Shown here: piece after piece, positions 5,547-22,662 of the stretch
Layout of the letters: every line of letters starts with the position of its first letter
Numbering within the stretch: position 1 is the first letter of the stretch
Virus record (IMG/VR): IMGVR_UViG_3300032324_000072
Coordinates: 1 to 26,555 of that record
DNA from: a virus
Taxonomy: Duplodnaviria > Caudoviricetes
DNA: 26,555 nucleotides
Strand: one strand, 5' to 3'
The notes under the pieces: model-generated
What the model saw: only the letters and a program-made list of their open reading frames with translations
Databases searched by the model: none
What the model was told of the DNA's origin: nothing
Program-made: the position numbers and the translations under genes

Positions 5547-8500
5547 ATGGCGTATAGCATCCGCTTACCCGACGGGACTCTCGTCGAGAATATTCCTGAC
5601 GACATGGACCCGGCTGTTGCTAAACAAAAAATCCTTTCTGCTTATCCAGACATAGGTAAACAAGTTGCGCCTGAAAAACCAGCGGATAATCGTCGCCCCG
5701 AAGATGTAGGCTTCTTTGAAGGTTTAGGGGCTGCAACTAAAAAAGGTTTTGAAGGTCTAGGAGACATTGCATCTGGTCTAGGCTTAGCTGGTACGTCAGT
5801 GCTTGGTTCTAGAGAAGACACTGCTAAGAAAATGGAAGCTATTAAAGCTGACCAAGCGGAACAAGCTAAAGGTACGCCGACGCTCACTGCAGCTGACATT
5901 CAACGTATTGCTGAAGAACGCGGTTTAGTTAAAGCTGGTACCCAAGTACCCGCATATATTGCAGAACAAATTTTACAAAGCGCGCCTCAAATGGCGATAC
6001 CTTTGGCAGTCGGTGCTGGTGCAGCTGCGTTATCTGGTCCTTTGGCCCCAATTGTTGGTCCAGTTGCTGGTATTGCTGCTTATGGTGTACAGCAGTTTGG
6101 TAACTTTTTAGTCCGTCAAGCACTAGCTAAGGACGACCCGGAAGAATTAGATTTGGCTAAAGCAGCTTTGACAGCTGGTGGTACTGCGCCGATTGGTTAT
6201 TTTGCAGACAGGTTTACTGTTGGTTTAAGTAGTATTGGTACTAAAAAAGCCATGTCAGAAGTTTATGCTGAGCTAGGTAAACGTGGTGTTGCAGGTGAAG
6301 TAGGTAAGCGTGCTGCTAAAGGTGCGGGTATTGGTATTATTGCAGAAGCGCCGACCGAAGTATTAGAGCAAGTCGCTGAGCGCTATCAGGCTGGTCTTCC
6401 TATTGGTATAGACGACGAAGAAGCTAAGAATGAATACATAGAAGCATTCTTTGGAGCTGCCGCTGCGGGTGGTGGTATTGGTGCTGGTGCTAAGACTATT
6501 GGCGGATACCGTGAATACCGTCAAGCAATTAAAGCTGAAGACGCTCTTGGTAAAGTACGTAGTGAAAAGAATGCTCTTGACGAAGCAGGAGAAGAAGATG
6601 CTGGAGTTGACACCGGAATTAATAAGCAAGGCGTTCCTATATCTGACCAACAAGAACTCGACATTGCCGCCGGAGTTAGAGATGCTGGACCTGGAGACTT
6701 GGAAGGAAATCAATTACCTCCTAGTCCAATTGGAGAGCGAGAAATCGCAATCAACAATCAACTAAAAAAACTAGACGAAAAGATATACGAAGCTAAAACT
6801 TATGCGCGACAGATGGCAGAAGTCAATAAAGACGACCCACGTATTGCAGAAGCATACGATGCTGTAGCACAGTTAGAACAACAAAAAGCACAAATAAAAG
6901 CGGCAACTCCTGAGCAGGCTGCCCCTCCTATACAAACTTTTAATGCACCAGGCCCTGAGCAAACTGGTTTTGAGTTTGGCGCAGCTGATGAAACTACGCA
7001 GCGTGCAATCGATACAGAGATGACCGAGACCCCTGGGTTTGCCCTAGCGCAAGAAACAGGTGCGGCTGCATTACCAAAGACAGACGTAACACCAATTGAA
7101 GAAGTTGTAGAAGAGCCTAAAGCTAAGATGATGCTTATCGGCGAAGGCGCTAATCCACTCGCTCCATTAAAGTCTTTCTTAAACAGCTTAAAGACAGCTA
7201 CTAATGCGCCGCAACAAGTGCGTGACTACAACGCCGAGATTAAGAACATGGTTGAGGACATCTCCGAGTTTATTGGGGAAACAACTAAACAGGTTGCTAG
7301 GTATAGGGCTAAAGACTCAAAAGGTAATTATATTGAGCCTCCACCAGTGCCACCTACAGGACCAGATGTAGCGGCACCAACGCCAGGAGTACAACGTAAC
7401 CAGCGTTTAAACTTTTTAGATAATTTCTTTAACGGCTTAAGTAATGCTCCAGCAGGACAAGAGAACTTAACCGGAACGTTGTCTCAACGCTTAGCAGGTA
7501 TGAACCTAAATGACCAGATGCAAGTTCTTGGTCAGTTAACTAAAGTGCCTAACATAAACACAGTTCGAGGTGTAAGGGATTTACGCGCCAAGCTTGGTGA
7601 AGCTATGGCTAAGTTTGAAGGTGAGAAGATTGGCGAGCCAGTAGAGAAAGCGGCTGTCTATAAAGGTGACGAAACTCAATCAACCGCAGTTAAACGTGCA
7701 ATTACCATCCTTAAGAACATACCGGCCAAACTACGCACCTCTCAAGAGAATGCAGCCATGACGTACTTTGAACGCTGGGGTTTTGCAATGGCTATGCGTT
7801 CGGCTGCGTTTGACATTGGCTCTAAACCTAATGACTTAATTGAAGGGCCTATATTTAAAGGCCAAAACAAAAACCAAGCTGAGTTATTCCAAGAGTGGGT
7901 TAAAGAAAACTTACCTGACGAATACAACAAGTTTGAAAACACGGTTAACGAATTTAAAGAGATGACCGCGCGTGCTGAGAAGTTAGAAGCCGATGCCGAG
8001 CGTGTAGCCAAAGGCCGTGGTGTGGTTGCAAGGGTTACACAACCAACAGGTAAGGTCAGTAAAGGTGACGGGTTTGAACCTAAAGCTGGTATCTCTAGAG
8101 TATTAGAGAAGATGGGTCCAACCCCGGTATCTAAGTTAGAAGCTAAACGTTTTTACCCAATGCACCCGGCAATGCAACAAGCAATAGCAGAAGGTAATCT
8201 TGACGTGGCTCTTGCTATTCTAGAGCGCTCAGGTAGCAAATTCTATTCCGGATTAGCTAGACGTCTACGTTCTTTAGGCTTGCAGACCGCTATTGTGTTT
8301 GACCAACAAAATGTATTAGCCGAACAGATATTAACCACAAATTACAAAGGCCAACTTGATACGGTATTTGCATTTGTGCAAGCAACTGATACAGCCTTGT
8401 TTAATGAATACTTTAGCAACCCAAGTGACTACGCTAAGGTTAAAGCTGGCTTAGATAAGATTACTGATAAGAGTATTGAAGGCCAAGTAGAACAACTTAA

Positions 8501-11500
8501 AGCTGGATATGAGTCGGCGCTTAATATGCTGCAATCCAATGGTACTTATGTATCTGGCTTAGATGTAATTAACCTAAACAAGCAGCAAGGTGGTGCAAGT
8601 AACTACACTTTTATACACGAAGTAGTGCACGCTACTACCGTTTACTCGCTAAATGAAGCCAACTTTGACAGTTTAGATAAGGGTCAACAGGCCGCAGTTA
8701 AACAGCTAAAAGAGCTATACGAGTTTGCTAAGCGCACAGGTCTAAATGAGTACGGCTTTAGGAACGTAGAAGAGTTTGTTGCTGAAGCTTTTTCTAACGA
8801 AACGTTCCAAGATATACTTAAGCAGATTCCGTACAAAGCTGGCCAAGACCAATTCCGTACAGAAAAGCTATCCCCACTAGACTATAAAAAACAACGTGAG
8901 TTAGATTTACGCAAGTCTATGTGGGACAAGTTCACTGAACTAGTTGCTAAACTGTTTAAGATGAATAACGTACTAGGGTATACCCTAGCTAACGCTAACG
9001 TAATTATGAAGGCGCCTCCAGCATTTACAGGGCAAGCTGCGGCGTTTAACTCGCAAAGTAAGCGCTCGGTATTAGCCGGAACTATGCCTACATCTCCTGG
9101 GTTTATAAAATTCTTAGACCGAATATACGAAGGTAAGCCTGGTTGGACAAAAGTCAAAGGCACGATGCCATACATATTAAAAGATATGGGCGATACTTTA
9201 CGTAAACGTGCTTTAGGTGTTTTAACGTTACGTCAGCTTAACGATATTGTTGGTGACAATATCAGCCAGTTTAGAGCATTTATTTCTAAATCAGAGGCAA
9301 TGTTAGATGAAACTAACCGCATTCTTTATTCAGTAAAAGAAGTAAGTGACAAGTGGCGCTTGTATAAAAAGAACAACCCTGAAAAATCGAAGACTTTATC
9401 TAGGTTAATGATTGATGCTACACGCATGAGTATAGACCCTAACAATACTACTGGCACTGTTTTAGACAAAGCGTGGAAAGATATTGGTCCAGAAGGTCAA
9501 GCTATTTTTAACGAAGTGCGTCAGTTCTATAAGAAGCAATTAGATGCCTATATTGAGTCTGTAATCGAAGCTAAAAAATCTGCATACAGAACTACTTTAA
9601 ATGAAGATAGCCCTGAATATAAAGCAGAAAGTGCAGAAATTGAAAAGCAACCTGACGTAGTAAACCTACGTAACTATTTCAAACGCCACACAATGCCGGT
9701 TTATTTCCCTCTTCGCCGTTTTGGTGACTACTCGTTACAAGTATTTAAAGGCGATAAAAAAGAATTCTATTTGTTTGAAAGTGCTGCGCAACGTAACGCA
9801 GTTACTAGATACATGATTGAAAAGCGTGGTGTTGCTAAAGGTGACATATTTGAAGGTAATTCAAGAGTAGAAACGTCAGGTAAATTGCAGGACTTTGCGT
9901 TTTATAAAGAGCTACAAGACCTTGTAGATGCCGGCACGGGGCATTCAAACGCTGAGTTAAAGCAGAACATTAAAGACAAAGTAGAGCAGTTGTACTTTAT
10001 GATGCTTCCTGACCAAAGCGTACGTAAAGCGTTTATGAACCGTAAAGACGTTCCAGGTATGGATGAAGATATGCTTCGTGCTTTTGAGTCGTCTGCCACA
10101 CATATTGCTTATCAACACTCAAGATTTAAATACGCGCCAGTACTACACAATTTAATTGACTCGGCTGATAAAGACGTTAAAGACAAAGGCTTAGAAGGCA
10201 CTGCTGAACGAGACTACGTTAACGAGTTAAGAGAGCGGTTAAAAATATTTATGAATCCGCCTGAAGCTAACGGGCTTACAAGAGGGGCAACAAACCTTTC
10301 TTTCTTATGGTATATGTCAGCCCCTGCTTCAGCGCTTGTTAACATGTTAGGCGTACCAGCTATTGGTTTACCTGTATTGGCAGCTAGATATAACTGGGGG
10401 GCTTCTAGTGCAAAAGTAGCCGAGTACATTAAGAAGTTTTCAAGCACTGGGTTTAGAGACCAGTTAGGTCGACGCGCGTTTCCTTCTTTGAGTAATAAGC
10501 CAGAAGTTCTTAACGATTTACAGCGACGTGCTTTTGACCAACTTGTAAGAGAAGGTTTGTTTGACATGACGCTTACACACGACATCTTAGACAAAGCCAA
10601 CCGTGCTTCTAGCGCCGAAGATGGTATTTTAGATAAAGTATCAGACATTGTTGGTACACCATTCCACGCAGCTGAGAAGTTTAACCGTGAAGTACTTGGT
10701 ATGGCTGCGTTTGATTTAGCTTATGCAAAAGCTAAGAAAGATGGGTATAGCGACGCGGCTGCATTTAAAAAAGCAATTAGTGACGCTAAAGAGTTAACGT
10801 ATAGGTCAATGTTTGACTACTCAACGCTAAACAAACCGCGCTATTTCCAAAATCAATACGCCAAAGTTGTTTTGCAATTTAAACAGTTCTCACAGCAAAT
10901 GACTTACTTGTTGGCTAGAAGTGCCTACGAAGGTATATCGCAGCCGTATACCGCAGAAGAACTTGGTGATGTTCGACTAAAAATTAAAGTTGACCATAAC
11001 AAAAACAAACCAGATTTACCCCCACTAACAGACGCTGAGTTAGATGCGGCGGTTGCCGAACACGTTAGACAAATAAAAACAGAAGCAAGAAACCGTTTAG
11101 CTGGTACTTTAGGTATGACGTTTGTGTTTGCTGGAGCTACTGGACTACCCTTGTGGTCAATGTTGTCAATGACCATGAATGCGTTACAAGCTGCATTTGG
11201 TGAAGATGATGAAGAGTGGGACTTTGACAACTGGTTTAAGAACTGGGCTGACAAGACGTTCGGCGGTGTAATAGGTGATTCGTTGTCAAGAGGTGTAGTA
11301 ACTCAAGTTCTTGGTGCCGACTTAAGTAGTCGTATGAGTTTAAATGACTTGTGGTTCCGTGACCAACGTAAGAATGCCGATGAAGTATCTTATGTGCAGA
11401 ACTTAATTATCTCTTTGCTTGGCCCGTCTATGGGTCTAGTTATAAATGGCGCTGAAGCAGTTAAACAACTTAACGACGGGCATATACAGCGTGCTATGGA

Positions 11501-11972
11501 GACAGCATCTCCAGCAGTTATTAAGAATATTATGAAAGGTATGCGCTACGAAGTAGAAGGTCGCGCAGTTAACCTTAAAGGTGACGAGTTAGTAGGCGAC
11601 TTATCAAGCTATGAGTCGCTTGTTCAAGGCATTGGATTTAGCCCAGAACGCGTTGCACAGCGTCAAAAGTCTAATATTGAGACAAAAGCTATGGAGCAAA
11701 AGATGCTTAACCGTAGAAAAGACTTATTAAACGCGTTCTTTATGGCGGTTGACAACGACGATGACGACCTAATGGACCGTGTAGAAGACAAGATTGAAAA
11801 GTACAATAACACTAAAGGTGCGCTACCTATTACTTCTAAGTTACTACAAAAATCAATTAAATCTAGATATATTAAACGTGCGCTTGCTGAATCTACTGGC
11901 GGTATAGCTATTAATAAGAAACTTATTGCTGACTTGGAGGATATGCAAGCCTACGGCAACCCTTACGAGTAA
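5547..11972 (+). CDS. Large polyvalent internal virion protein with zincin-like metallopeptidase motif and PLxRFG motif
   Basis: 2141 aa; TAAGGA RBS; HEVVH (8616-8630) followed by EEFVAE (8769-8786); YFPLRRFGDY (PLRRFG at 9708-9725); helical C-terminal region; last gene of the virion block. Confidence 0.75.
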   Translation: MAYSIRLPDGTLVENIPDDMDPAVAKQKILSAYPDIGKQVAPEKPADNRRPEDVGFFEGLGAATKKGFEGLGDIASGLGLAGTSVLGSREDTAKKMEAIKADQAEQAKGTPTLTAADIQRIAEERGLVKAGTQVPAYIAEQILQSAPQMAIPLAVGAGAAALSGPLAPIVGPVAGIAAYGVQQFGNFLVRQALAKDDPEELDLAKAALTAGGTAPIGYFADRFTVGLSSIGTKKAMSEVYAELGKRGVAGEVGKRAAKGAGIGIIAEAPTEVLEQVAERYQAGLPIGIDDEEAKNEYIEAFFGAAAAGGGIGAGAKTIGGYREYRQAIKAEDALGKVRSEKNALDEAGEEDAGVDTGINKQGVPISDQQELDIAAGVRDAGPGDLEGNQLPPSPIGEREIAINNQLKKLDEKIYEAKTYARQMAEVNKDDPRIAEAYDAVAQLEQQKAQIKAATPEQAAPPIQTFNAPGPEQTGFEFGAADETTQRAIDTEMTETPGFALAQETGAAALPKTDVTPIEEVVEEPKAKMMLIGEGANPLAPLKSFLNSLKTATNAPQQVRDYNAEIKNMVEDISEFIGETTKQVARYRAKDSKGNYIEPPPVPPTGPDVAAPTPGVQRNQRLNFLDNFFNGLSNAPAGQENLTGTLSQRLAGMNLNDQMQVLGQLTKVPNINTVRGVRDLRAKLGEAMAKFEGEKIGEPVEKAAVYKGDETQSTAVKRAITILKNIPAKLRTSQENAAMTYFERWGFAMAMRSAAFDIGSKPNDLIEGPIFKGQNKNQAELFQEWVKENLPDEYNKFENTVNEFKEMTARAEKLEADAERVAKGRGVVARVTQPTGKVSKGDGFEPKAGISRVLEKMGPTPVSKLEAKRFYPMHPAMQQAIAEGNLDVALAILERSGSKFYSGLARRLRSLGLQTAIVFDQQNVLAEQILTTNYKGQLDTVFAFVQATDTALFNEYFSNPSDYAKVKAGLDKITDKSIEGQVEQLKAGYESALNMLQSNGTYVSGLDVINLNKQQGGASNYTFIHEVVHATTVYSLNEANFDSLDKGQQAAVKQLKELYEFAKRTGLNEYGFRNVEEFVAEAFSNETFQDILKQIPYKAGQDQFRTEKLSPLDYKKQRELDLRKSMWDKFTELVAKLFKMNNVLGYTLANANVIMKAPPAFTGQAAAFNSQSKRSVLAGTMPTSPGFIKFLDRIYEGKPGWTKVKGTMPYILKDMGDTLRKRALGVLTLRQLNDIVGDNISQFRAFISKSEAMLDETNRILYSVKEVSDKWRLYKKNNPEKSKTLSRLMIDATRMSIDPNNTTGTVLDKAWKDIGPEGQAIFNEVRQFYKKQLDAYIESVIEAKKSAYRTTLNEDSPEYKAESAEIEKQPDVVNLRNYFKRHTMPVYFPLRRFGDYSLQVFKGDKKEFYLFESAAQRNAVTRYMIEKRGVAKGDIFEGNSRVETSGKLQDFAFYKELQDLVDAGTGHSNAELKQNIKDKVEQLYFMMLPDQSVRKAFMNRKDVPGMDEDMLRAFESSATHIAYQHSRFKYAPVLHNLIDSADKDVKDKGLEGTAERDYVNELRERLKIFMNPPEANGLTRGATNLSFLWYMSAPASALVNMLGVPAIGLPVLAARYNWGASSAKVAEYIKKFSSTGFRDQLGRRAFPSLSNKPEVLNDLQRRAFDQLVREGLFDMTLTHDILDKANRASSAEDGILDKVSDIVGTPFHAAEKFNREVLGMAAFDLAYAKAKKDGYSDAAAFKKAISDAKELTYRSMFDYSTLNKPRYFQNQYAKVVLQFKQFSQQMTYLLARSAYEGISQPYTAEELGDVRLKIKVDHNKNKPDLPPLTDAELDAAVAEHVRQIKTEARNRLAGTLGMTFVFAGATGLPLWSMLSMTMNALQAAFGEDDEEWDFDNWFKNWADKTFGGVIGDSLSRGVVTQVLGADLSSRMSLNDLWFRDQRKNADEVSYVQNLIISLLGPSMGLVINGAEAVKQLNDGHIQRAMETASPAVIKNIMKGMRYEVEGRAVNLKGDELVGDLSSYESLVQGIGFSPERVAQRQKSNIETKAMEQKMLNRRKDLLNAFFMAVDNDDDDLMDRVEDKIEKYNNTKGALPITSKLLQKSIKSRYIKRALAESTGGIAINKKLIADLEDMQAYGNPYE

Positions 11973-12000
11973 AAAAGACCCCGGGTATTTCACCGGGGTT
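11971..12000 (-). terminator. Intrinsic terminator for minus-strand transcription, possibly weakly bidirectional
   Basis: Minus strand reads ACCCCGG-TGAAATAC-CCGGGGT-CTTTTTT; sits where the two gene arms converge. Confidence 0.8.
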
Positions 12001-12059
12001 AAACACTCTCACTAAGGAAAAACTTCATGAACAAACCTGAAGAGGTACGAGGAGTACCT
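11971..12059 (-). ncRNA. Putative ~89-nt antisense small RNA (or structured 3' UTR)
   Basis: Hairpins AGGUAC-UCCUC-GUACCU and CUUCA-GGUUUGUUCA-UGAAG, then UUUUUCCUUAG, then the terminator; 12014-12038 is complementary to the mRNA at 17027-17001. Confidence 0.5.
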
Positions 12060-12065
12060 GGGTGA

Positions 12066-12095
12066 ATAATACTACTTTATCCGCCAAACACGCAA
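12066..12095 (-). promoter_or_regulatory. Candidate sigma70 promoter for the small RNA
   Basis: TTGCGT (12095-12090)-N18-TATTAT (12071-12066); an A 7 nt downstream (12059) is the first base of hairpin 1; the -35 is weak. Confidence 0.4.
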
Positions 12096-12269
12096 CCCCA
12101 TAATGCCTTTTTCTATTACAACACGGGATACTATCTTATAGCGTAGCCTGTTTGTGGTCCGTTTAACCTGAATTAAGGCGTCGTCGGTATCCAAGCACGG
12201 GATAAAAAACGACGCCCCAATCACAAAGTTCTTCCAATTAACTCTGAAGTTCAGCCGATGTATCAGCAT
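12072..12269 (-). CDS. Small basic hypothetical protein, possibly DNA-binding
   Basis: Likely start at ATG 12269 (MLIHRLNFRVNWKNFVIGASFFIPC...GLRVWRIK, 65 aa), overlapping the primase end; W..F.IGxSFF.P...GLRVWR pattern recurs in phages. Confidence 0.65.
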   Translation of the reverse strand: MLIHRLNFRVNWKNFVIGASFFIPCLDTDDALIQVKRTTNRLRYKIVSRVVIEKGIMGLRVWRIK

Positions 12270-15072
12270 CTTGCTTAGCGGCTTGGATATAGTCTTCAGC
12301 ATTAATAAAGTCATTATTATCAATACTAAACATATAAGCATGAACTGCAGGGGTCTGAATATCAGTGCCTTTTGACATACGTTTTTTAACCTGTCCTTTG
12401 TATATACCGTCGGCTTCTAAACCTTTAAGGGTATCTTTTAACGTAATCTGTTGCTTAACGCAATATGCCTTTAAATGCTTAGAGTTAATCCACAATAACT
12501 TAGTGTCAGGCTCAATACGGATTAATAGCTCACCATATTTGACATCTAAAATAGGTATAGAGTTTAAGCCTGTACGTGCATCGGCTTCGCCATTGATAAC
12601 TAAAGTAGACTTACGGTGGTCGTTCATAAACTCGCCAATTACGCTAGATTGAGTCTGTGCCGGAGCTTTAATCTCAGTTCTCATAACTTTAAGTTCCTTG
12701 ATAATCCAGTCATAAACACGCTTGACGTCAAAGTCAATGATGCCTAAGTCCTTAGCAATCAAAGCACCAGCAATGTTGCAAGCTACTGTGCCAGACCAGA
12801 AGCGCTCACGGCTAGTAAACCCAACCGCCTTGTCAATCTTTTGCTGCACCTGCATAACCAAGCTAACTGCATCCTCTAGGTTTCCTACAAGGTACTCGGC
12901 GTATTGCACGCCTGCATGTCCATAGTGAGAATAGACTGGGTTAAATATGGCATCAGCTTCTTCTTTAGAAAGGATGTCTGTAACCTCAATACGATACTCA
13001 ATTAAGCGCATAAACTCGCCATCAGGGGTAGACTTAAGCGAAGATAGCTTATCGTAAAATGAAGCGTTAGAAGAGCATAGAGCAATCGTAGCCCACTTAG
13101 TGGCATTGTGGCGCTCTTCGTTAGAATGTTGCATCATGCGGTTCTTACCACGACCCTGAGAGATGCTGTAAACCAAATCAGAGAAGTGGTCTCCTGACAT
13201 TTTAGTAATCTCGTCAATCGTAACAGGCAGGTTATTCATCACGCCGAGCCGATGAATCATGGCGTTTTGCGTATCTTTCCACTGCAACATTAGCTCTTCA
13301 GGATGCCCCCATACGCTATTGCATAGCTTAAGAATAGTAGACTTACCTGTACCTGACGTATTATTAATTAAGTTGATGATGGCGCCTTTGAGGTTTAAGT
13401 GCTTTAGCAATGGTGCACCAAACGCAGTAAAGAAACCGAACGCATGTGGCTCAAACTGTGGTTGGTCATAGGTTTTAACTATTGATTTCCATTCGTCATA
13501 GTCACCACAAGGAGCCAAAAAATTAGCCAAACTGCCAGTGGTGCTAGAAGGTGGGCTATAAGTAGTTCCATCTGCGCCAATTTCTTTTTCACCCAAAATA
13601 AATTCATTGTTACCTTCCGTCCATCCAAATTGTGTTCTCATAATTTCCACCTGTGATTTATGTTGTAGCTCTTTTACAAAAGCAATTAAGTAATTCATGA
13701 TGGCGTCCATCTGCTTTTTGGCAGCGACAACACCATGCCATGCAAGCTTGTCTCTTAGCTTGTCAAATGTAAGCGCATCTGTTTGTGGCATAGAGAACTC
13801 ACGTACTCCGTCCTTCGGTAGATGCAACCGAATCCATACAGCATCACCCTTGATTGGGTCTTTTAAACGTTTGACCACATACAAGTCGTGCTCATAAATA
13901 TTTACTACTTTTTCTTCGTCTTCATCGTCATCACCCTTGACTTTAAGCGACGCATAGATACCCCCAGTCTTCCCCCTGAAATAAGGGAACGGGAGTTCAG
14001 GAACAAGGTATTTCTCCTGCTTACCCTCGGACGTTTCTTCAACAATCGGAGCATCCGGTTCCGCAGCGACAATCTCATTGCCAAGTAATATCGGTGACGA
14101 TACCTTCCCCTTATTTGGGCAAGCACTACAACCATCCGGGTTAAGTTTGGCGAAGGTCTCACAGGTATACGGACCTTTGGTCTGATTCGCCTTTCTCTCC
14201 GTTTCGTCAGGTGAATACGATGGATGTGCACTAGAAATTTTATGGATGGCTTCATCTTTATCTACGCAGTGCCATGCTATTGACAGGCCTGCTCTCCAAA
14301 GTGGTTCTTCAATTGTGTCTTGATTAAGCGCAATATGCTCTAGCTGTGCGCAGCCCTTACCATCAATTGTTTTCATCATGATGGTTTTAAACCGACTTTG
14401 ACGGTTGCCCATCAATGCTTTAGTAACTTCGCTCAAGCCCCTAGGAATGTAGTCAGGCGCAACTAATACACCAAGTAACTGGCGTAGGTGGTCGTACTCT
14501 GACTCCGGCTCAATCCTCAGTAACTCTACTGGGAAAGGTGGGTCACTCTTAAAATTCCATGTTTCAGGCACTCGTAGGATAGACGCACTCTCTGCCGTAC
14601 GGCTAGGGTCTGCATGAAACTCGTGGTCAACGCATAAGGCTTTTAGTCTGTCGGCAACTGCTTTCCATTCAGCACGGTTAATAGTACTGTTTAATCTCCA
14701 GTAAGCGTGTACACCTCGACCAGAGTTAACGACTGATGGTAATGGCCAATGAATTGTTGCACAAAACTCTTTAAGTGCTACTAATCCTTCTGCTCTGTCG
14801 GCGTAAGGTTTGCCAACACCACAATCAATGTCTATCCAAAAAGACTTAAAGTAAGTGCTGTTCTTTTGTGTACGTCCGTCAGTATCATTTTCATACTTAG
14901 CACAAGCAAAGTAAACGTCATACTGCTTGTTAACCAAATCATCAATAGTATCCTGCGCTTCTAGCAATGTCTGCACGAAGACTTGTCTTGGGTGTCCCTC
15001 TTGCTTTAAACCGACAATGCAGTACCACCCTTCCGGAGGTAGCACTGCTGTCAGTAAATCTGTTGTAGCCAT
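12238..15072 (-). CDS. AEP-type primase fused to DUF927-type P-loop helicase
   Basis: AEP motifs WIDID and SGRGVHAYW; Cys cluster; QFGW; Walker A SGTGKST, Walker B VTIDE; SQGRGKNR; start set to ATG 15072 after GAGG. Confidence 0.85.
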   Translation of the reverse strand: MATTDLLTAVLPPEGWYCIVGLKQEGHPRQVFVQTLLEAQDTIDDLVNKQYDVYFACAKYENDTDGRTQKNSTYFKSFWIDIDCGVGKPYADRAEGLVALKEFCATIHWPLPSVVNSGRGVHAYWRLNSTINRAEWKAVADRLKALCVDHEFHADPSRTAESASILRVPETWNFKSDPPFPVELLRIEPESEYDHLRQLLGVLVAPDYIPRGLSEVTKALMGNRQSRFKTIMMKTIDGKGCAQLEHIALNQDTIEEPLWRAGLSIAWHCVDKDEAIHKISSAHPSYSPDETERKANQTKGPYTCETFAKLNPDGCSACPNKGKVSSPILLGNEIVAAEPDAPIVEETSEGKQEKYLVPELPFPYFRGKTGGIYASLKVKGDDDEDEEKVVNIYEHDLYVVKRLKDPIKGDAVWIRLHLPKDGVREFSMPQTDALTFDKLRDKLAWHGVVAAKKQMDAIMNYLIAFVKELQHKSQVEIMRTQFGWTEGNNEFILGEKEIGADGTTYSPPSSTTGSLANFLAPCGDYDEWKSIVKTYDQPQFEPHAFGFFTAFGAPLLKHLNLKGAIINLINNTSGTGKSTILKLCNSVWGHPEELMLQWKDTQNAMIHRLGVMNNLPVTIDEITKMSGDHFSDLVYSISQGRGKNRMMQHSNEERHNATKWATIALCSSNASFYDKLSSLKSTPDGEFMRLIEYRIEVTDILSKEEADAIFNPVYSHYGHAGVQYAEYLVGNLEDAVSLVMQVQQKIDKAVGFTSRERFWSGTVACNIAGALIAKDLGIIDFDVKRVYDWIIKELKVMRTEIKAPAQTQSSVIGEFMNDHRKSTLVINGEADARTGLNSIPILDVKYGELLIRIEPDTKLLWINSKHLKAYCVKQQITLKDTLKGLEADGIYKGQVKKRMSKGTDIQTPAVHAYMFSIDNNDFINAEDYIQAAKQDADTSAELQS

Positions 15073-15152
15073 TGTCGCCTCTGTCCGCAATAAAGATGGG
15101 GTAGCACGGGGTGCGGCGAATCCCCTGTTCGTTCCGTCAAACTAGCTACCCC
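15073..15152 (-). promoter_or_regulatory. Structured intergenic leader upstream of the primase
   Basis: Perfect 8-bp outer stem GGGGUAGC/GCUACCCC (15152-15145 with 15105-15098) enclosing AC(A)GGGG-AUUCGCCGCA-CCCCGU. Confidence 0.55.
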
Positions 15153-15158
15153 TGTAAA

Positions 15159-15401
15159 CTAAACGCTAAACCTAGCTTTCTTTAGCATCGCTGCAATCTG
15201 TTCGGCTTTTGCTCGGTGTGGTTCTGAAACTCCAGTAAACCAGGAATACACAGCCATACGAGAAACATCAAACTTTTCTGCAATATCAGCGACTGGTATG
15301 TCCTTAGAGATGCAGTACCTACCAAGCGCCACTCCAATTTTTCTAGAGTCGGCAGCTTGGTTAGCTTGCACCAATCGAAAGCTATAGCCTCTTAAACTCA
15401 T
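15159..15401 (-). CDS. Cro/XRE-like helix-turn-helix regulator
   Basis: 80 aa; VADIAEKFDVSRMAVYSWFTG..EP HTH signature. Confidence 0.8.
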   Translation of the reverse strand: MSLRGYSFRLVQANQAADSRKIGVALGRYCISKDIPVADIAEKFDVSRMAVYSWFTGVSEPHRAKAEQIAAMLKKARFSV

Positions 15402-16276
15402 TCGTCGTCAGTAGACCAACCACTCATTACAGATTTAAGGTCACGCTTGGCAGTCGGCTCAGGCTTCTTGTCTTCACGTTTCTTAGGCTCATCTATTTCT
15501 TCAGCTACAACTTTTTCAACTTTAGGCGCAGCAGCTTTAGGTGCTTCTAGCTTAGGCTTAACTCCGTCAGTCTGCGATACCGTCATTTGAATAGCGTTCT
15601 TAGCGGCAGGTGTCTCGCCTTGGCGTTTTGCTGCTTCCCAATCTTCGCGGGACAAGAATTTTAATGGTTTGAAGAACAATTTAGCTGTGTCGCTAGTCTC
15701 GTCAAAACGCATCTGAGTAACCAACGTGTTTAGGTTATAGCCCTGTGCGCCGACATACTTAGCATACTGCTCAAATGGCATGTGCTCCAAATCGCCTTTA
15801 CCGAAGATAGACTTAGCTGCTAACTGTAACTGATATACATCTCCGTTAACGTCGTGTGCCATAGATACAGCTAAGCGACGGAAGTGGCGACATGCACGGC
15901 TATCACCTTGACCTGAACCTTTAATGTTCTGTGGGCACTCGGCGCAGTTGTGATGCTGCGCTTCTTTAACGGACTTGTCTGGTGCAATACCATCGTTAGA
16001 CCAGCAGTCAGGTGGAGTAGCATCTGCTTTAGGGTTATACGCAGAGCCATAGTATTGACGAGATACTTCTTTAGCGGCATTAACGATAACCACTTCTAAC
16101 TCATCATTTTTGCTTGTCATTACCTCTTCACCGTTTACAACCATGCGGAACTTGCCGCCACGCAAAGAAATACGTTTGCTACCGCCACCACCTGCAAGAG
16201 CTCTAGTAACTTCATCTAGCTGTACCTCTTTAAGGTAGTCGGGTAAGTTATTGTTAAACAATGCTAATTCACTCAT
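15398..16276 (-). CDS. Putative ssDNA-binding/annealing protein with Cys motif
   Basis: AAGGAG RBS; RISLRGGKF, PDCWSNDG, CAECPQN..G...RAC; Lys/Glu/Pro linker and acidic-aromatic tail WSTDDE; replication-operon context. Confidence 0.55.
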   Translation of the reverse strand: MSELALFNNNLPDYLKEVQLDEVTRALAGGGGSKRISLRGGKFRMVVNGEEVMTSKNDELEVVIVNAAKEVSRQYYGSAYNPKADATPPDCWSNDGIAPDKSVKEAQHHNCAECPQNIKGSGQGDSRACRHFRRLAVSMAHDVNGDVYQLQLAAKSIFGKGDLEHMPFEQYAKYVGAQGYNLNTLVTQMRFDETSDTAKLFFKPLKFLSREDWEAAKRQGETPAAKNAIQMTVSQTDGVKPKLEAPKAAAPKVEKVVAEEIDEPKKREDKKPEPTAKRDLKSVMSGWSTDDE

Positions 16277-16617
16277 TTTGCTTCTCCTTTAAGTTCCTTG
16301 ATTTGACGACTCATGTACCACTGTGCTTTCTCTAAATCTTGTATCGTGTCTTGTTTCTTTCCTGCACGGGATGTGTATTTAATCACATTACCCTTTAAGT
16401 ACCCAATAAATTCTTCGGGTGTTAGCTTTGCTTTGATGTAGTCAATAGTCTCAATGCCGCCAATTGTGTAATGCGCTGGGCTATTGACTGGGTCATCAAG
16501 CAGTTTTACTTTAGTACGTTTCGGTTTTGAAGTTGCCAACAGCATTGCTTCTAAAGTGTTCTTCTCAGATTCCTCTAGCATCAATGGCACCTCTTTGATT
16601 GGTTCCCATCCGTTCAT
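16273..16617 (-). CDS. DUF3310 family protein (T7 gp1.7-like)
   Basis: DPVNSPAHY..GGIETID...GNVIKY..RAGKK...DLEKAQWY. Confidence 0.9.
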   Translation of the reverse strand: MNGWEPIKEVPLMLEESEKNTLEAMLLATSKPKRTKVKLLDDPVNSPAHYTIGGIETIDYIKAKLTPEEFIGYLKGNVIKYTSRAGKKQDTIQDLEKAQWYMSRQIKELKGEAK

Positions 16618-17015
16618 GATTTACTTCTCCTTACCATTAGTGTGTATTCACTGTCCACATTTAACCCGGCGGGCAGTAGTTCGGGGTTTTCTTCTAGAAA
16701 TTGTTTTAAGTTGCTCTGATGTATGCGCTTTTCAAGTAAATCTGGCGCATCATGTGACATCATAAATTTATAAAACTCATCCCAGTTATTAGTCCAGTAA
16801 CGGGTGTTAACTGAACGAATTAATGTGCCGTCTTTAGTCTTAAGACTATTAACGCCTTCCTCTTTACATATGTCTAATAATTCACGTTTTATTAAATCTA
16901 AATCTTCTGTAAGCTCTGCTTCCCGTGTTTTCCATGCACGTTCTTCAGTCTCACGTTTAGTGTATATTTTGGTATATATAGAGATGAGTTCTTCTAACGA
17001 AGGTTTATCGTCCAT
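16614..17015 (-). CDS. Phage hypothetical protein with N-terminal coiled coil; first gene of the replication operon
   Basis: 133 aa; AAGGA RBS; SLKTKDGT..WDEFYKF..LLEKRI..PAGL pattern seen next to SSB-like genes in phages. Confidence 0.75.
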   Translation of the reverse strand: MDDKPSLEELISIYTKIYTKRETEERAWKTREAELTEDLDLIKRELLDICKEEGVNSLKTKDGTLIRSVNTRYWTNNWDEFYKFMMSHDAPDLLEKRIHQSNLKQFLEENPELLPAGLNVDSEYTLMVRRSKS

Positions 17016-17057
17016 AAGTTTTTCCTTTAAGTTATCAGGTCTAACGCCTGTTACATC

Positions 17058-17088
17058 ATATTAGTTTATAAACTTGACCATGTCAAGT
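17058..17088 (-). promoter_or_regulatory. Sigma70 promoter with an inverted repeat over the -35
   Basis: TTGACA (17086-17081)-N17-TAATAT (17063-17058), AT-rich upstream; palindrome ACTTGAC-CAT-GTCAAGT at 17072-17088. Confidence 0.75.
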
Positions 17089-18993: not shown

Positions 18994-19374
18994 TTATCTT
19001 CCTAGTTCATTTGCTGAGTTATACCACTCAATTATTACCCACTTAAGTATGTCAATACCTTCACCAAGCAAGACTGGTTCATACTCATTGGGGTTTATAT
19101 AAAAAACTTGTTCTACATTCATCCCGTTATCTGTGTCACCAACAATAATCAACACAACGGTTCTAGGCTGTTTTGCAAGGTTTCTTAGTAATATTCTTTG
19201 GCCACCTCCAAGAGATTCGCCATTGCGCTTCCACTCGCCGAATAAAAAACACTTATTACGTTCATATACCATGTCTACATCAGATGGTAAAAAACGTGGA
19301 TTAGTAGGTATTAACCCTATAAGTTCCCCAAAGTCTTTATGTTTGGCGTTTGGATTGCGCATGGCTGATGTCAT
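18994..19374 (-). CDS. PD-(D/E)XK nuclease-fold protein
   Basis: PSDVD...LFGEWK.....GGGQR; 126 aa. Confidence 0.6.
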   Translation of the reverse strand: MTSAMRNPNAKHKDFGELIGLIPTNPRFLPSDVDMVYERNKCFLFGEWKRNGESLGGGQRILLRNLAKQPRTVVLIIVGDTDNGMNVEQVFYINPNEYEPVLLGEGIDILKWVIIEWYNSANELGR

Positions 19375-20081
19375 TTTTGTATCGCCAAGTTGTTTTGCCC
19401 AATCTGCGTAATCTCATACCCTAGGCTCTCCAAGTGGGCAAAGACCGCCTGACGCTTCTCAGGGAACTTCCATGTCCAAGCTTCAAAGATAATCGGCGGG
19501 TAGTTGTTTTCACGCAACGTATGCTCTGCACCATGAAGCACCTGTAGCTCGTGCCCTTCAACGTCAATCTTGATTAGGCGAACCTTCTCGTACTGCATAG
19601 AATCAAGTGGAATGATTATCATGCGCTCGGCAACACCTTCAGACTTAACTTCATAGTCCTTAAGGCGAGTGTCAAAGTCAATGCTAAACGCACCGATGTT
19701 TGTTTCTTCAGCATAGTTTGGTAATACGTAGCTAGTTATACGCTGTTCGTTACTCAACCCAACATTGTGTGCATATACATTACTTAGTCGGTTTAAGAAT
19801 AGGTTGGCACATAACTGGTAGTAAACAATACGTTGTGGTTCAAAGACTTCAAATTGTAGATGTGCATGATGTCTAGCCAGTGGAACAACATAACTGCCAA
19901 GATTAGCGCCGATATCAAGCACAATACCCTCAGTGTGTCCTGCCAAAAGCTCGGACGAGAGTTCTTGTAATTCTTTCTCGTAACCACCACTACGTACAGC
20001 GTTACTAACAATATCGTTATGCTTAAAAAGAGCATAATTCAGGTCTCCGTCTGTGGCTAAATGAATTTCAGGTAGGCTCAT
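19371..20081 (-). CDS. FkbM-family SAM-dependent methyltransferase
   Basis: VLDIGANLG, FEP, LIKIDVEGHELQVLHGA, PPIIFE. Confidence 0.9.
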   Translation of the reverse strand: MSLPEIHLATDGDLNYALFKHNDIVSNAVRSGGYEKELQELSSELLAGHTEGIVLDIGANLGSYVVPLARHHAHLQFEVFEPQRIVYYQLCANLFLNRLSNVYAHNVGLSNEQRITSYVLPNYAEETNIGAFSIDFDTRLKDYEVKSEGVAERMIIIPLDSMQYEKVRLIKIDVEGHELQVLHGAEHTLRENNYPPIIFEAWTWKFPEKRQAVFAHLESLGYEITQIGQNNLAIQK

Positions 20082-20860
20082 TTAAGATTACCGCCGGATT
20101 TGATAATGTCGCCACCGTATACGTATGTACCAACGTGTTCTAGTTTAATAAATGGGTTAGCGTATATCTTGCCACCGTTCTTACGATGTAACTCACAGAA
20201 GTGATAGTCCTCAGACAGCAAGCAACCTGACTCATCAATACTTGTTGCAAAGAACTCTTTTACTTCGGGCTTGAGGTAGTTGCCGTTAGCATCTTTAACT
20301 GTGCTCGGTCTGTATGTAGGAACTTTGTCAGCTAAGTTCTCAAACACTTGTCGCTTGATAAGCATAAAGCCTGTACCACCATGACGTACTTCAACACAAC
20401 CTGATTCATCTGTGTGTAGTTCTTGACCTAGCTCATGTGCGAAGTTCAATACAAAAGCACCTGAGTAATCTTTTAACCCTGTAGTCTTACCTGATGCTAC
20501 GGCTTTTTCGACAGCAACCCAGTCAACTTCTTTTTTGGGATAGATACCGCAAGCGATATCCTTATCCGCCGCCATCAATTGAGCAACTGCCGTGCCATCA
20601 AACCCGATGTCAGCATCAATGAACATTAGGTAGTCCATCTTTTGTTCTAAGAAGATACGAGTAAGTTCGTTACGTGCACGAGTAATAAGCGATTCGTTAC
20701 CCATTTGTACAAAATAGACTTGTACGCCAATAGACTGCATCTTGTTAATAGTCTGTAATACACCAACCATAAAATTACCTGTGCACATACCACCATACAT
20801 AGGTGTTGCAATCATTAGGCTTGGCTTTTGTTTGTTGATTGTTACTGTTTCAATGCTCAT
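20078..20860 (-). CDS. GT-A fold (GT2-like) glycosyltransferase
   Basis: IATPMYGG, ESLITRARN, FIDAD (DxD), GTGFMLIKR, LSEDYHFC, HVG. Confidence 0.85.
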   Translation of the reverse strand: MSIETVTINKQKPSLMIATPMYGGMCTGNFMVGVLQTINKMQSIGVQVYFVQMGNESLITRARNELTRIFLEQKMDYLMFIDADIGFDGTAVAQLMAADKDIACGIYPKKEVDWVAVEKAVASGKTTGLKDYSGAFVLNFAHELGQELHTDESGCVEVRHGGTGFMLIKRQVFENLADKVPTYRPSTVKDANGNYLKPEVKEFFATSIDESGCLLSEDYHFCELHRKNGGKIYANPFIKLEHVGTYVYGGDIIKSGGNLK

Positions 20861-21391: not shown

Positions 21392-22027
21392 TCATTTGTT
21401 TAACTCTTCAAAGTTATAAAACCACTCATCCTTGGCGCTCCACTTAGCATGGTTTTCAACGCTGTACACTTCTGTTGGTATCTTAAAATCAGGTGTTTTT
21501 AATACGGCGGGAACCAATGATACGTCATACCATAGGCATCTGTTGTTTGGCTGGCATGCAAATTGACCGTTGTCTAGCTTAATAAAGTTATAGCTCTTGT
21601 GTTCTTCAACTCCTTCACTAAAGCTCGTATCCAAACGGTTAGCATCGGGGCTGGCAAAGTCAATCGTGAACAAGTAGTTACCAAAGTGAAACTGTTTATC
21701 CTTGCCAAAGTATTTGACCTTGAGTCCACGTAGATTAGATTTCTCAATCACAGCCATGTCGTATGATAGGCAATCCCAAATCTGCAAGAAATCCAATGGT
21801 AACATATATGTTACTGGCTTCCATACGTAGGCACTGATAGGTAGCTTGTCGTACAAAGCTCCATAGTTTGTGAGCATAGATTCAATCCTAAACGCTTGAC
21901 CCTTGATAGCTTTGGCACTAATCCATACGCAAGGCTCTAATTCACCATGCCCTGATTCGTGGTTATATAGGAATTCTTTACGAACAAAACATTTAACAGG
22001 CGGTATGTTGGCTACTAAAAAAGTCAT
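21392..22027 (-). CDS. Phage protein of unknown function
   Basis: 211 aa; ANIPP..C.VRKEFLY...HGE, YLFTID, EHKS, GQFACQPNNR pattern, recalled from aquatic phages. Confidence 0.75.
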   Translation of the reverse strand: MTFLVANIPPVKCFVRKEFLYNHESGHGELEPCVWISAKAIKGQAFRIESMLTNYGALYDKLPISAYVWKPVTYMLPLDFLQIWDCLSYDMAVIEKSNLRGLKVKYFGKDKQFHFGNYLFTIDFASPDANRLDTSFSEGVEEHKSYNFIKLDNGQFACQPNNRCLWYDVSLVPAVLKTPDFKIPTEVYSVENHAKWSAKDEWFYNFEELNK

Positions 22028-22162: not shown

Positions 22163-22438
22163 CTACTTAATGCTTCTTTTATGAGTCATTTTTGCTTTAG
22201 CCAATGCTTTTTCAAGCGCATCAATACGTGCTGTCAATGCCCTGTTTACTGTCATAGCTTCGGATACTTGGGTAGTAATAGCTTCTGCTTGTTGGTTAAT
22301 TACGTCTGAGGCTAACCACAACGCACCGCTAAGGTCGTTATCTTGTGACTGTTCAGCAACCATCTTGACAACGGAAGCCGCACCATCAAGCCTGTAAGTA
22401 AGTTCTTCAATCCTGCTTAAATGTTGCCATATATTCAT
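22163..22438 (-). CDS. Hypothetical helical/coiled-coil protein
   Basis: 91 aa, ATGA overlap, heptad-like pattern. Confidence 0.7.
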   Translation of the reverse strand: MNIWQHLSRIEELTYRLDGAASVVKMVAEQSQDNDLSGALWLASDVINQQAEAITTQVSEAMTVNRALTARIDALEKALAKAKMTHKRSIK

Positions 22439-22662
22439 TTATTCACATCCCCAGTAAAGTGTTCAGGGTACTTTAATATAGGCTTCCTATCCGCCGCATT
22501 AAACCATTCGAGTTGAGCATAAATACCTTCTATATCATCTGCTGATATGGTTGCTTGCCCATAAGCATAGGCTTCACCTTCGGTGTCGTAAAACACTTCA
22601 GCTATTTCAAAAAACTCATTGCCCATTTCATCAACCGTACTAACTATTCTATGGTTCCACAT
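22435..22662 (-). CDS. Hypothetical phage protein
   Basis: Start set to ATG 22662 (TAATG overlap); MWNHRIV...FEIAEVFYD..G pattern common in phages. Confidence 0.7.
   Translation of the reverse strand: MWNHRIVSTVDEMGNEFFEIAEVFYDTEGEAYAYGQATISADDIEGIYAQLEWFNAADRKPILKYPEHFTGDVNK

Follow-up and report, generated by a model that had tools for sequence, protein, structure and literature searches.

A candidate small RNA at the end of a phage replication operon and its predicted pairing with the start of the operon's first gene

Does a short RNA from the 3′ end of a phage replication operon pair with the ribosome binding site (RBS) of the first gene of that operon, 5 kb away? The question is raised by IMGVR_UViG_3300032324_000072, a virus record of 26,555 nt (estimated completeness, 41%), which was analysed entire and is called the window in what follows. 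In this record a plus-strand and a minus-strand gene block converge on a 100-nt gap. The gap lies at the end of the minus-strand replication operon, which is composed, in order, of a DUF7307 gene, a DUF3310 gene, an SSB-like gene (292 amino acids), a helix-turn-helix (HTH) gene, a DUF927 primase/helicase gene and a last gene named g89. An initial annotation had proposed that a small RNA (sRNA) made from the gap is antisense to the start of the DUF7307 gene. From the comparison with relatives we conclude that the sRNA element is very probably real, as is its selected pairing with the DUF7307 start, taking together the three RNA-pairing readings which keep this target, and that the cassette and its DUF7307 partner likely constitute an autoregulatory phage sRNA family. 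The elements concerned are the following.

11971..12059, minus strand: predicted 89-nt sRNA, with a 5′ hairpin at 12059–12043, an antisense stretch at 12038–12014, a terminator stem at 11999–11978 and a U tail
12014..12038, minus strand: seed, complementary to the DUF7307 start: Shine–Dalgarno (SD) sequence, spacer, AUG and first codons
17001..17027, minus strand: target site, with the SD, spacer, AUG and codons 2–5 of the DUF7307 gene
16614..17015, minus strand: DUF7307 gene (Pam3 gp33-like, 133 amino acids), first after the operon promoter and main predicted target

Predicted pairing in the window and in related phages

Within the window, the case for the pairing was suggestive only. Both sites lie where the initial annotation had placed them and align as it described, AAGGAAAAACTTCATGAAC---AAACCT against AAGGAAAAACTT-ATGGACGATAAACCT, with 23 identities, one G-U-compatible mismatch and two gaps (bulges). 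The 12-mer common to both has no occurrence in the window besides those at +12014 and −17027. Repeated 12-mers are frequent there, with 71 direct and 65 inverted pairs, and the shared 12-mer alone is therefore at chance level, as had been cautioned from the start. The 89-mer folded as expected into a 5′ hairpin with a UCCUC loop, a weak second hairpin and a terminator, the latter being also called by the promoter/terminator scan; the fold had a z score of −1.7, and 10 of 200 shuffled sequences were equally stable. None of the runs listed as containing relatives was recorded as RNA. For two relative contigs, about 88% alike and both probably DNA from one study, none of the listed differences falls in 12001–12061.

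Pairing energies were calculated with a purpose-written heuristic resembling IntaRNA (ViennaRNA loop energies plus opening costs, with a 6-bp seed); plain duplexfold pairing had been dropped, as it over-extends duplexes. The DUF7307 start paired at −12.05 kcal/mol, which was the second rank among the 29 starts of the window, followed by the DUF3310 start (third) and, in fifth place, the SSB-like start. The first rank that had been anticipated among phage starts was reached with a narrower start window (1 of 30). Compared with 2099 background windows (mean −2.6, standard deviation 2.1), the target window came seventh, behind four other places. The best score, −13.0, was that of the start of a 91-amino-acid gene at 22163–22438 (22438–22470, minus strand) facing the 3′ linker of the sRNA.

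Related contigs were gathered by scans with g89 and DUF7307. They yielded 261 sequences, 207 of them with g89 and five of these cut off; the loci are redundant. By rule, a cassette was present in 182 of the 202 untruncated g89 loci and absent from 20. Its layout runs from the g89 stop through a TAnnnT word, in most cases a hairpin, then a stretch rich in pyrimidines and a G-C stem to a run of U, for a total of 55–95 nt. The primary sequence is poorly kept (mean column identity, 42%), and the UCCUC loop and second hairpin are not general across the family. With 23 sRNAs aligned by MAFFT, RNAalifold arrived at no consensus structure, because the variable loops misalign the stems, and hence no formal count of pair covariation was obtained. 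A metagenome scan added 80 loci, of which 53 had the cassette, two were cut off and the rest (19 distinct sequences) lacked it by rule. The lineages without a cassette are L008/L253, L172, L176, L257 and L259, together with many distant metagenome loci. As to a host, seven matches to genome contigs came from metagenome bins that are unrelated and belong to several phyla; these were taken to be phage contigs, probably binned by mistake. Directly past the g89 stop, L093–L095 and L362 carry an opposite-facing cassette (hairpin, hairpin, terminator) that has a TATAAT-like word upstream and pairs clearly with neither the DUF7307 nor the SSB-like start.

The 167 loci with a cassette and both start sites were reduced to 93 unique pairs and then to 33 clusters at 72% sRNA identity. 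In these genomes the seed varied together with the DUF7307 start that it matches: AAGGAAAAACTT in the window, GAAAGGAAGTA in L020, ACTGTAAAGGA in L038, AGGAGAGTGA in L082, GGAGTGTGC in L184 and CCCTTGGAGAAAG in L187. Over a first set of 18 clusters (53 loci), which still included two truncated loci with mis-set starts, sRNAs paired with the DUF7307 start of their own genome at −8.87 and with foreign ones at −3.22 (z −8.5). For all 33 clusters, with at most three loci each, the values were −9.46 and −3.42 kcal/mol (z −13), and for the 15 held-out clusters −10.09 and −3.77 (z −8.3), the own target ranking first in 11 of the 15. The permutation p value was at its floor in the 18-cluster and 33-cluster tests (1e-5 and 2e-5). 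No effect was observed with control windows shifted by −60, +60, +120 or +180 nt (z −1.4 to −0.05) or with the reversed sRNA (z +0.8). Kinship was controlled with 16 disjoint nearest-neighbour pairs on the protein tree, one of the 33 clusters remaining unpaired: the own combination was better in 13 of the 16 (sign test p 0.011, Wilcoxon p 0.0007). Of the three pairs that went the other way, two are close and have almost the same words, and one contains L010.

Ranking against other genes gave a similar picture. Among the starts of the same locus, the DUF7307 target came first in 11 of 18 clusters, or 13 of 18 after two self-antisense artefacts were set aside. When all the starts of ten contigs of 45–67 kb were considered (53–101 per contig), it was first in seven, second in one and third in two. 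Five new metagenome clusters with both sites ranked 3, 2, 2, 2 and 1 against 33 foreign starts; one of them, L348, is doubtful since its pairing uses the terminator stem. Four lineages which fail the cassette rule on spacing (L078, L175, L209/L210 and L255/L256) still pair at −14 to −15. That an RNA from the 3′ end of the operon pairs with the RBS of the first gene, as first proposed, withstood the covariation check in the 33 clusters, the held-out set and the sister pairs. The alternative is a chance likeness of two A/G-rich words beside an ordinary terminator. The 136 other 12-mer pairs of the window and the second rank obtained there fit it; the permutation values, the held-out clusters, the sister pairs and the whole-contig ranks refute it, and we consider it next to impossible.

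The paired region spans positions −11 to −5 in 30–32 of the 33 clusters and extends to codon 4 or further in about a third of them or fewer. Of the complementarity originally described, to the SD, the AUG and codons 2–5, the part facing the SD and spacer is conserved, and that facing codons 2–5 is found in a minority. Pairing with the own target is imperfect and covers 9–25 nt, and the seed is more open than the remaining sRNA body in 28 of 33 clusters. The comparison of genomes demonstrates, for what sequences can tell, a conserved anatomy and a complementarity that is specific to each lineage and has its centre at the SD and spacer; the short, imperfect, exposed seed with its conserved complementarity to a distant RBS is of the kind that characterizes trans-acting, RBS-blocking sRNAs. 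Many sRNAs (for example L080, L092, L128 and L134) possess a second anti-SD word, the target of which could be a host gene or another phage gene.

Acting strand and mechanism

The signals around the cassette bear on which nucleic acid acts and on how it is made. The features concerned are listed here.

12066..12071, minus strand: predicted −10 TATTAT, directly after the g89 stop
12090..12095, minus strand: predicted −35 TTGCGT, formed by the Leu-Arg codons of a C-terminal motif of g89
12072..12341, minus strand: g89, last operon gene, start uncertain (phrog_7200, E 5e-4); its final codons carry the predicted sRNA −35
5547..11972, plus strand: LPD39/DarB-like gene (2141 amino acids), convergent, which terminates at the sRNA terminator

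The distance from TAnnnT to the codon-aligned −35 was 18 nt in 26 clusters and 17 nt in the other seven; the search rule demanded TAnnnT but permitted eight start positions. The Leu codon of the −35 was TTG in 24 of 28 cases, compared to 208 of 946 in a background of two other genes, and five cassette-less lineages have Val or Ile at this position. When +1 was predicted at seven bases past the −10, the pairing of the 5′ hairpin began at +1 or +2 in 25 of 33 clusters, and the z score of this hairpin was below −1.5 in 23 of 33. The eight nucleotides past the terminator stem count 6.85 T on the minus strand, where they were selected by the rule, and 1.85 on the plus strand. The LPD39 stop lies within the A run of the terminator (11971–12000, plus strand), and in all 33 clusters the strand of LPD39 lacks a U tail; with no U run there, late read-through may run antisense into the sRNA. 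Mismatches between seed and target were G-U-compatible rather than C-A at a ratio of about 1.6–2.3 to 1 (p 0.008–0.08 over six settings), compared to about 1:1 in foreign pairs. The promoter-like spacing and codon bias and the one-way terminator are, like the anatomy, plain in the aligned genomes. Together with the hairpin at +1, the G-U bias and the open seed they favour a discrete minus-strand RNA, and the own unit of a trans-acting sRNA, a promoter plus an intrinsic terminator, is present at the level of sequence only.

The plus-strand or DNA copy could act instead, either as a read-through RBS decoy for a protein or as one of two copies recognized by a DNA-binding protein. Read-through is plausible given the T count after the hairpin, and a reverse-complement pairing test was also significant (z −7.4), as any direct repeat would give. 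The G-U asymmetry favours pairing of a minus-strand RNA with mRNA, bulges are tolerated, promoter and terminator are both on the minus strand, and the shared word varies among lineages. An SD with ATG was present on the plus strand in merely 9 of 33 clusters, and a 12-codon plus-strand open reading frame was rejected. An action of this copy appears highly improbable.

Several observations weigh against a promoter-driven sRNA directed at DUF7307. The pairing energies come from a heuristic without validation against IntaRNA, and inside the window the target is not unique, four other places scoring as well. In the L010/L011 lineage the pairing with DUF7307 is weak or nil (0 to −9.9), and it is the SSB-like start which pairs, at −14.7 to −19.5 in eight of nine loci and at only −0.7 in L010. 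L136 and L211 have a cassette but pair at only about −5; L057 ranks 9 of 18 and 15 of 33, and L171 ranks 14 of 33. The candidate promoter of the initial annotation was not called by a consensus scan of the window, and it is the 17–18 nt register and the TTG bias of the relatives that speak for it. Five atypical cassettes lack TTG. The five cassette-less lineages, too, all use CGN for the Arg of the −35, so that only the Leu bias counts as a promoter signal. A looser G-U count over whole alignments gave 57 against 39 (p 0.08). Lastly, no strict internal terminator was found in 27 of 33 operons, so a long mRNA containing both sites may exist.

Such an mRNA could be used in two ways. The same RNA, with the same target, might be cut by a nuclease from the 3′ end of the operon mRNA, in the manner of CarZ, and the sRNA level would then be a direct read-out of operon expression. 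The shared strand and terminator of operon and sRNA, the scarcity of internal terminators and a precedent (in the part of PMC7398697 covered here) support processing; it does not need the fixed −35/−10 register of 33 of 33 clusters, the TTG bias or a hairpin at the predicted +1, and we judge it distinctly unlikely. Alternatively, the 3′ tail might fold onto the first RBS of its own 4.4–5 kb molecule and stop translation. In each of the 33 clusters, sRNA and target share one strand, the sRNA sitting 4398–4956 nt downstream of the target, and 27 of the clusters have no strict terminator in between. It leaves the promoter signals and the 5′ hairpin unexplained, an int-alpA RNA with a pyrimidine tail stands between the sites, a terminator-like site intervenes in 6 of 33 operons, and we regard it as very unlikely. 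Between the trans-acting sRNA and the pairing of mRNA ends, which the initial annotation had offered side by side, the former is favoured and the latter less so.

The best single mechanism is probably a promoter-driven, trans-acting sRNA of about 89 nt that represses the translation of DUF7307. We propose that the sRNA would start at a sigma70-type promoter of its own, set within the final codons of g89, and that its seed would pair in trans with the DUF7307 RBS and block translation initiation. Pairing of an sRNA at the SD and spacer is established to block 30S loading, and we infer that the same happens here, the RNA being transcribed, paired in the cell and repressive. Repression would pass down the operon by translational coupling: the first four open reading frames are chained by ATGA overlaps, as already noted in the initial annotation, so that the downstream genes would be reduced too. 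The output of DUF7307 and SSB-like protein would be capped. The most likely purpose is capping or timing the levels of these two proteins during replication.

The initial annotation had also suggested a shutdown in a latent state. No tyrosine integrase or resolvase was found in any of the five complete genomes, which leaves latency unsupported; a plasmid-like state is possible. P1 itself is a plasmid prophage. The model of DUF7307 (pLDDT 84) shows a long helix and a beta ribbon, together with a small helical part. Its fold had no Foldseek match at E 0.001, no PDB sequence matched below E 0.09, and the VIA matches were generic coiled coils only (best Z 6.0); the PHROG label 'minor head protein' was not adopted. 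The SSB-like protein had weak fold matches to the phiC31 RDF (directionality factor, E 0.0029) and to the RB69 SSB (E 0.017).

Other targets and the surrounding operon

The remaining genes of the operon and its control elements are as follows.

16273..16617, minus strand: DUF3310 gene, the start of which pairs about as well as the main target within the window
15398..16276, minus strand: SSB-like gene, which may be a secondary target and is the best-pairing one in the L010/L011 lineage
15159..15401, minus strand: HTH protein gene
12238..15090, minus strand: primase/helicase-like gene (DUF927), likely start 15072
17058..17087, minus strand: operon promoter TTGACA-17-TAATAT, placed by the promoter scan at 17086–17058, with an operator-like palindrome over the −35
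17036..17050, minus strand: leader hairpin (loop C..AGA), close to the predicted 5′ end of the mRNA
15085..15152, minus strand: int-alpA RNA (RF02996; 38.5 bits, gathering threshold 35.8), an already known structured motif, lying between the HTH gene and the primase gene

In the cluster of the window, the longer RNA pairs with the DUF3310 and SSB-like starts too. As a general co-target the SSB-like start had a z score of −4.1 in the first set and +0.7 in the held-out clusters; its SD is conserved and the test is low-powered. The operon of the L010/L011 lineage carries inserted genes, and its pairing looks like a shift of target inside the operon. At L011 3844–4797, an extra first gene and a 98-amino-acid gene (excisionase-type HTH by eye) precede the SSB-like gene.

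Over the ten large contigs, a small sample to which several statistics were applied, early-strand starts paired slightly better (z −1.9) and late-strand starts slightly worse (z +2.4) with the own than with a foreign sRNA. The difference early minus late was −1.78 for own and −0.95 for foreign sRNAs (p 0.005), and early-strand starts provided 5.4 of the top eight compared to 4.1 (p 0.0035). This weaker pairing suggests a wider role in the damping of early genes. It also brings in the reading that the cassette is a general anti-SD RNA against host mRNAs and that the DUF7307 match is a by-product of a genome-wide RBS style. The two-hairpin CU-rich layout resembles Burkholderia RNAs (in the part of PMC5688073 covered here), many members have two anti-SD words, several early genes of L081, L043 and L252 have the same RBS word in common, and the starts on the early strand have a weak preference for the sRNA of their own genome (z −1.7 to −1.9). 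However, the DUF7307 effect (z −6.3, rank 1 in 9 of 10) is far above that of the other early starts, the 8-mer of its start is common to only 0–2 other starts per genome, and the HTH, primase and helicase starts show little effect (z −1.6 to −2.6). We give this reading very little credence; host targets could exist in addition to DUF7307.

A broader proposal is an RNA-based early-to-late switch combined with an identity code in integrase-free phages. The sRNA of each lineage would silence DUF7307 and the early genes with the lineage-specific RBS word, which late starts would avoid; unterminated late transcripts would titrate the sRNA; and competition between co-infecting relatives would drive the divergence of seed and target, up to a superinfection specificity like that of P1/P7 c4 without lysogeny. 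We hold it to be unlikely.

Ahead of the operon promoter, the minus-strand genes also include a DNA polymerase A, an exonuclease and an SNF2 helicase. Among the early genes, at 19371–20860 and 21392–22027 (minus strand), an FkbM-type methyltransferase, an Anp1-like glycosyltransferase-type gene and a gene of a PHROG 'ferredoxin' family were noted. The operon promoter pattern was found in 27 of 33 clusters, 19 of which have the palindrome arm; the palindrome TTGAC-N3-GTCAA over the −35 is a candidate operator for the HTH protein of the operon. The leader-hairpin pattern with the C..AGA loop was seen in 11 of 33 clusters and is a possible protein-binding site. In L081 5480–5860 (also L080, L084, L087 and L089, a single lineage), a structured leader of 240–330 nt extends from the promoter to the DUF7307 start, with no Rfam match to E 1. 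The int-alpA RNA was also detected in 6 of 19 relative loci; its two loops, with GACGG and GCCG, could pair with each other. Other lineages have at this position a different structure, with a GCCGTC...GACGGC pairing, which adjoins the primase start.

A DUF7307 pattern match occurs in an estimated 3300 or so stored IMG/VR stretches. The cultured distant relatives Xp15, Effie, Rollin, RHph_TM27A and KPP25 have DUF7307 and SSB-like genes; no g89 match was found in them, and their operon end shows no match to the DUF7307 start. Xp15 and Effie carry long repeated GAGCGC-centred palindromes where the operons converge (L261 17500–18000 and L262 17040–17400), possibly origins or operators.

Relation to known RNAs

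Short, SD-like seeds are the reason why the targets of bacterial sRNAs can rarely be proven from sequence. In these phages, the joint change of a seed and one RBS over more than 30 lineages makes a regulator–target pair readable from uncultured phage genomes alone. The proposed family would extend the self-control of operons of the CarZ type to phages without integrase, mark DUF7307, a large family, as a protein with a phage-controlled dose, and open dozens of natural, partly orthogonal sRNA–RBS pairs to laboratory reporters. RNA control of their own replication genes by integrase-lacking phages was not found in the portions of the literature searched. Rfam had no sRNA family at threshold in the window or in 19 relative loci, anti-hemB, RF02278 and C4 included. 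The element itself is not described in the literature listings and passages covered, from which most subscription papers were out of scope; the supplements of PMC5737381 and PMC10690425 may list a motif without a target, and six short motifs had no match in six supplementary files of PMC10690425 (files 1, 2 and 4 being outside the search). The comparisons below draw on parts of the cited sources.

The antisense RNAs sar and OOP are fully complementary to the targets that they overlap. The phage sRNA differs in being on the same strand as its target, 4.4–5 kb away, with imperfect pairing of 9–25 nt, so that the overlap on the opposite strand which defines cis-antisense RNAs is lacking and the likeness to P22 sar first suggested is not supported. 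P22 sar, lambda OOP and aQ are short antisense RNAs of temperate phages which lower phage gene expression by pairing (PMC12197685). VpdS of VP882 and PreS of lambda, which come from temperate phages, are described as dependent on Hfq and directed mainly at host RNAs; like the phage sRNA they are trans-acting, of similar size and linked to phage replication, whereas neither operon-level self-targeting nor co-evolution of seed and target is described for them in the covered text of PMC12197685. None of these five RNAs, as presented in that 2025 review of phage sRNAs, has the layout found here.

The Burkholderia double-hairpin RNAs (RF02278) and anti-hemB (RF02837) are chromosomal, with many predicted host targets (PMC5688073, PMC1950547, 10.64898/2026.09.01.748597). 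They resemble the phage sRNA by their size (55–100 nt), 5′ hairpin, CU-rich anti-RBS stretch and terminator, and are unlike it in sequence and context. Anti-hemB scored 20.6 bits over 12052–11971, compared to a threshold of 49.5 (E 0.96), and RF02278 had no match in the window to E 5 and none at threshold in the 19 relative loci.

C4 of P1/P7 is a three-stem RNase P product which occludes RBSs and controls the antirepressor in lysogeny (PMC5320573). As with the phage sRNA, a phage RBS is occluded from a separate site and variation of the seed sets the specificity among relatives. The closeness to P1 c4 that had been supposed finds no further support: the phage sRNA has no C4 match in Rfam, two or three simple hairpins, a replication operon as target and no integrase found.

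CarZ and OppZ of Vibrio cholerae, autoregulatory sRNAs derived from 3′ UTRs, offer the nearest parallel. CarZ pairs from the 3′ end of carAB with the carA start and is an RNase E product of a single-promoter transcript (PMC7398697). Like the phage sRNA, both lie at the 3′ end of an operon, use its terminator and target the start of its first gene, and coupled downstream genes would fall too; location at the 3′ end of the targeted operon was observed in 33 of 33 clusters. CarZ is cut by RNase E, needs Hfq and is chromosomal, whereas the phage sRNA has a predicted promoter of its own and a seed that diverges together with its target. By analogy, CarZ may serve as the closest working model: the phage sRNA family lies outside every family definition tested and would work like CarZ.

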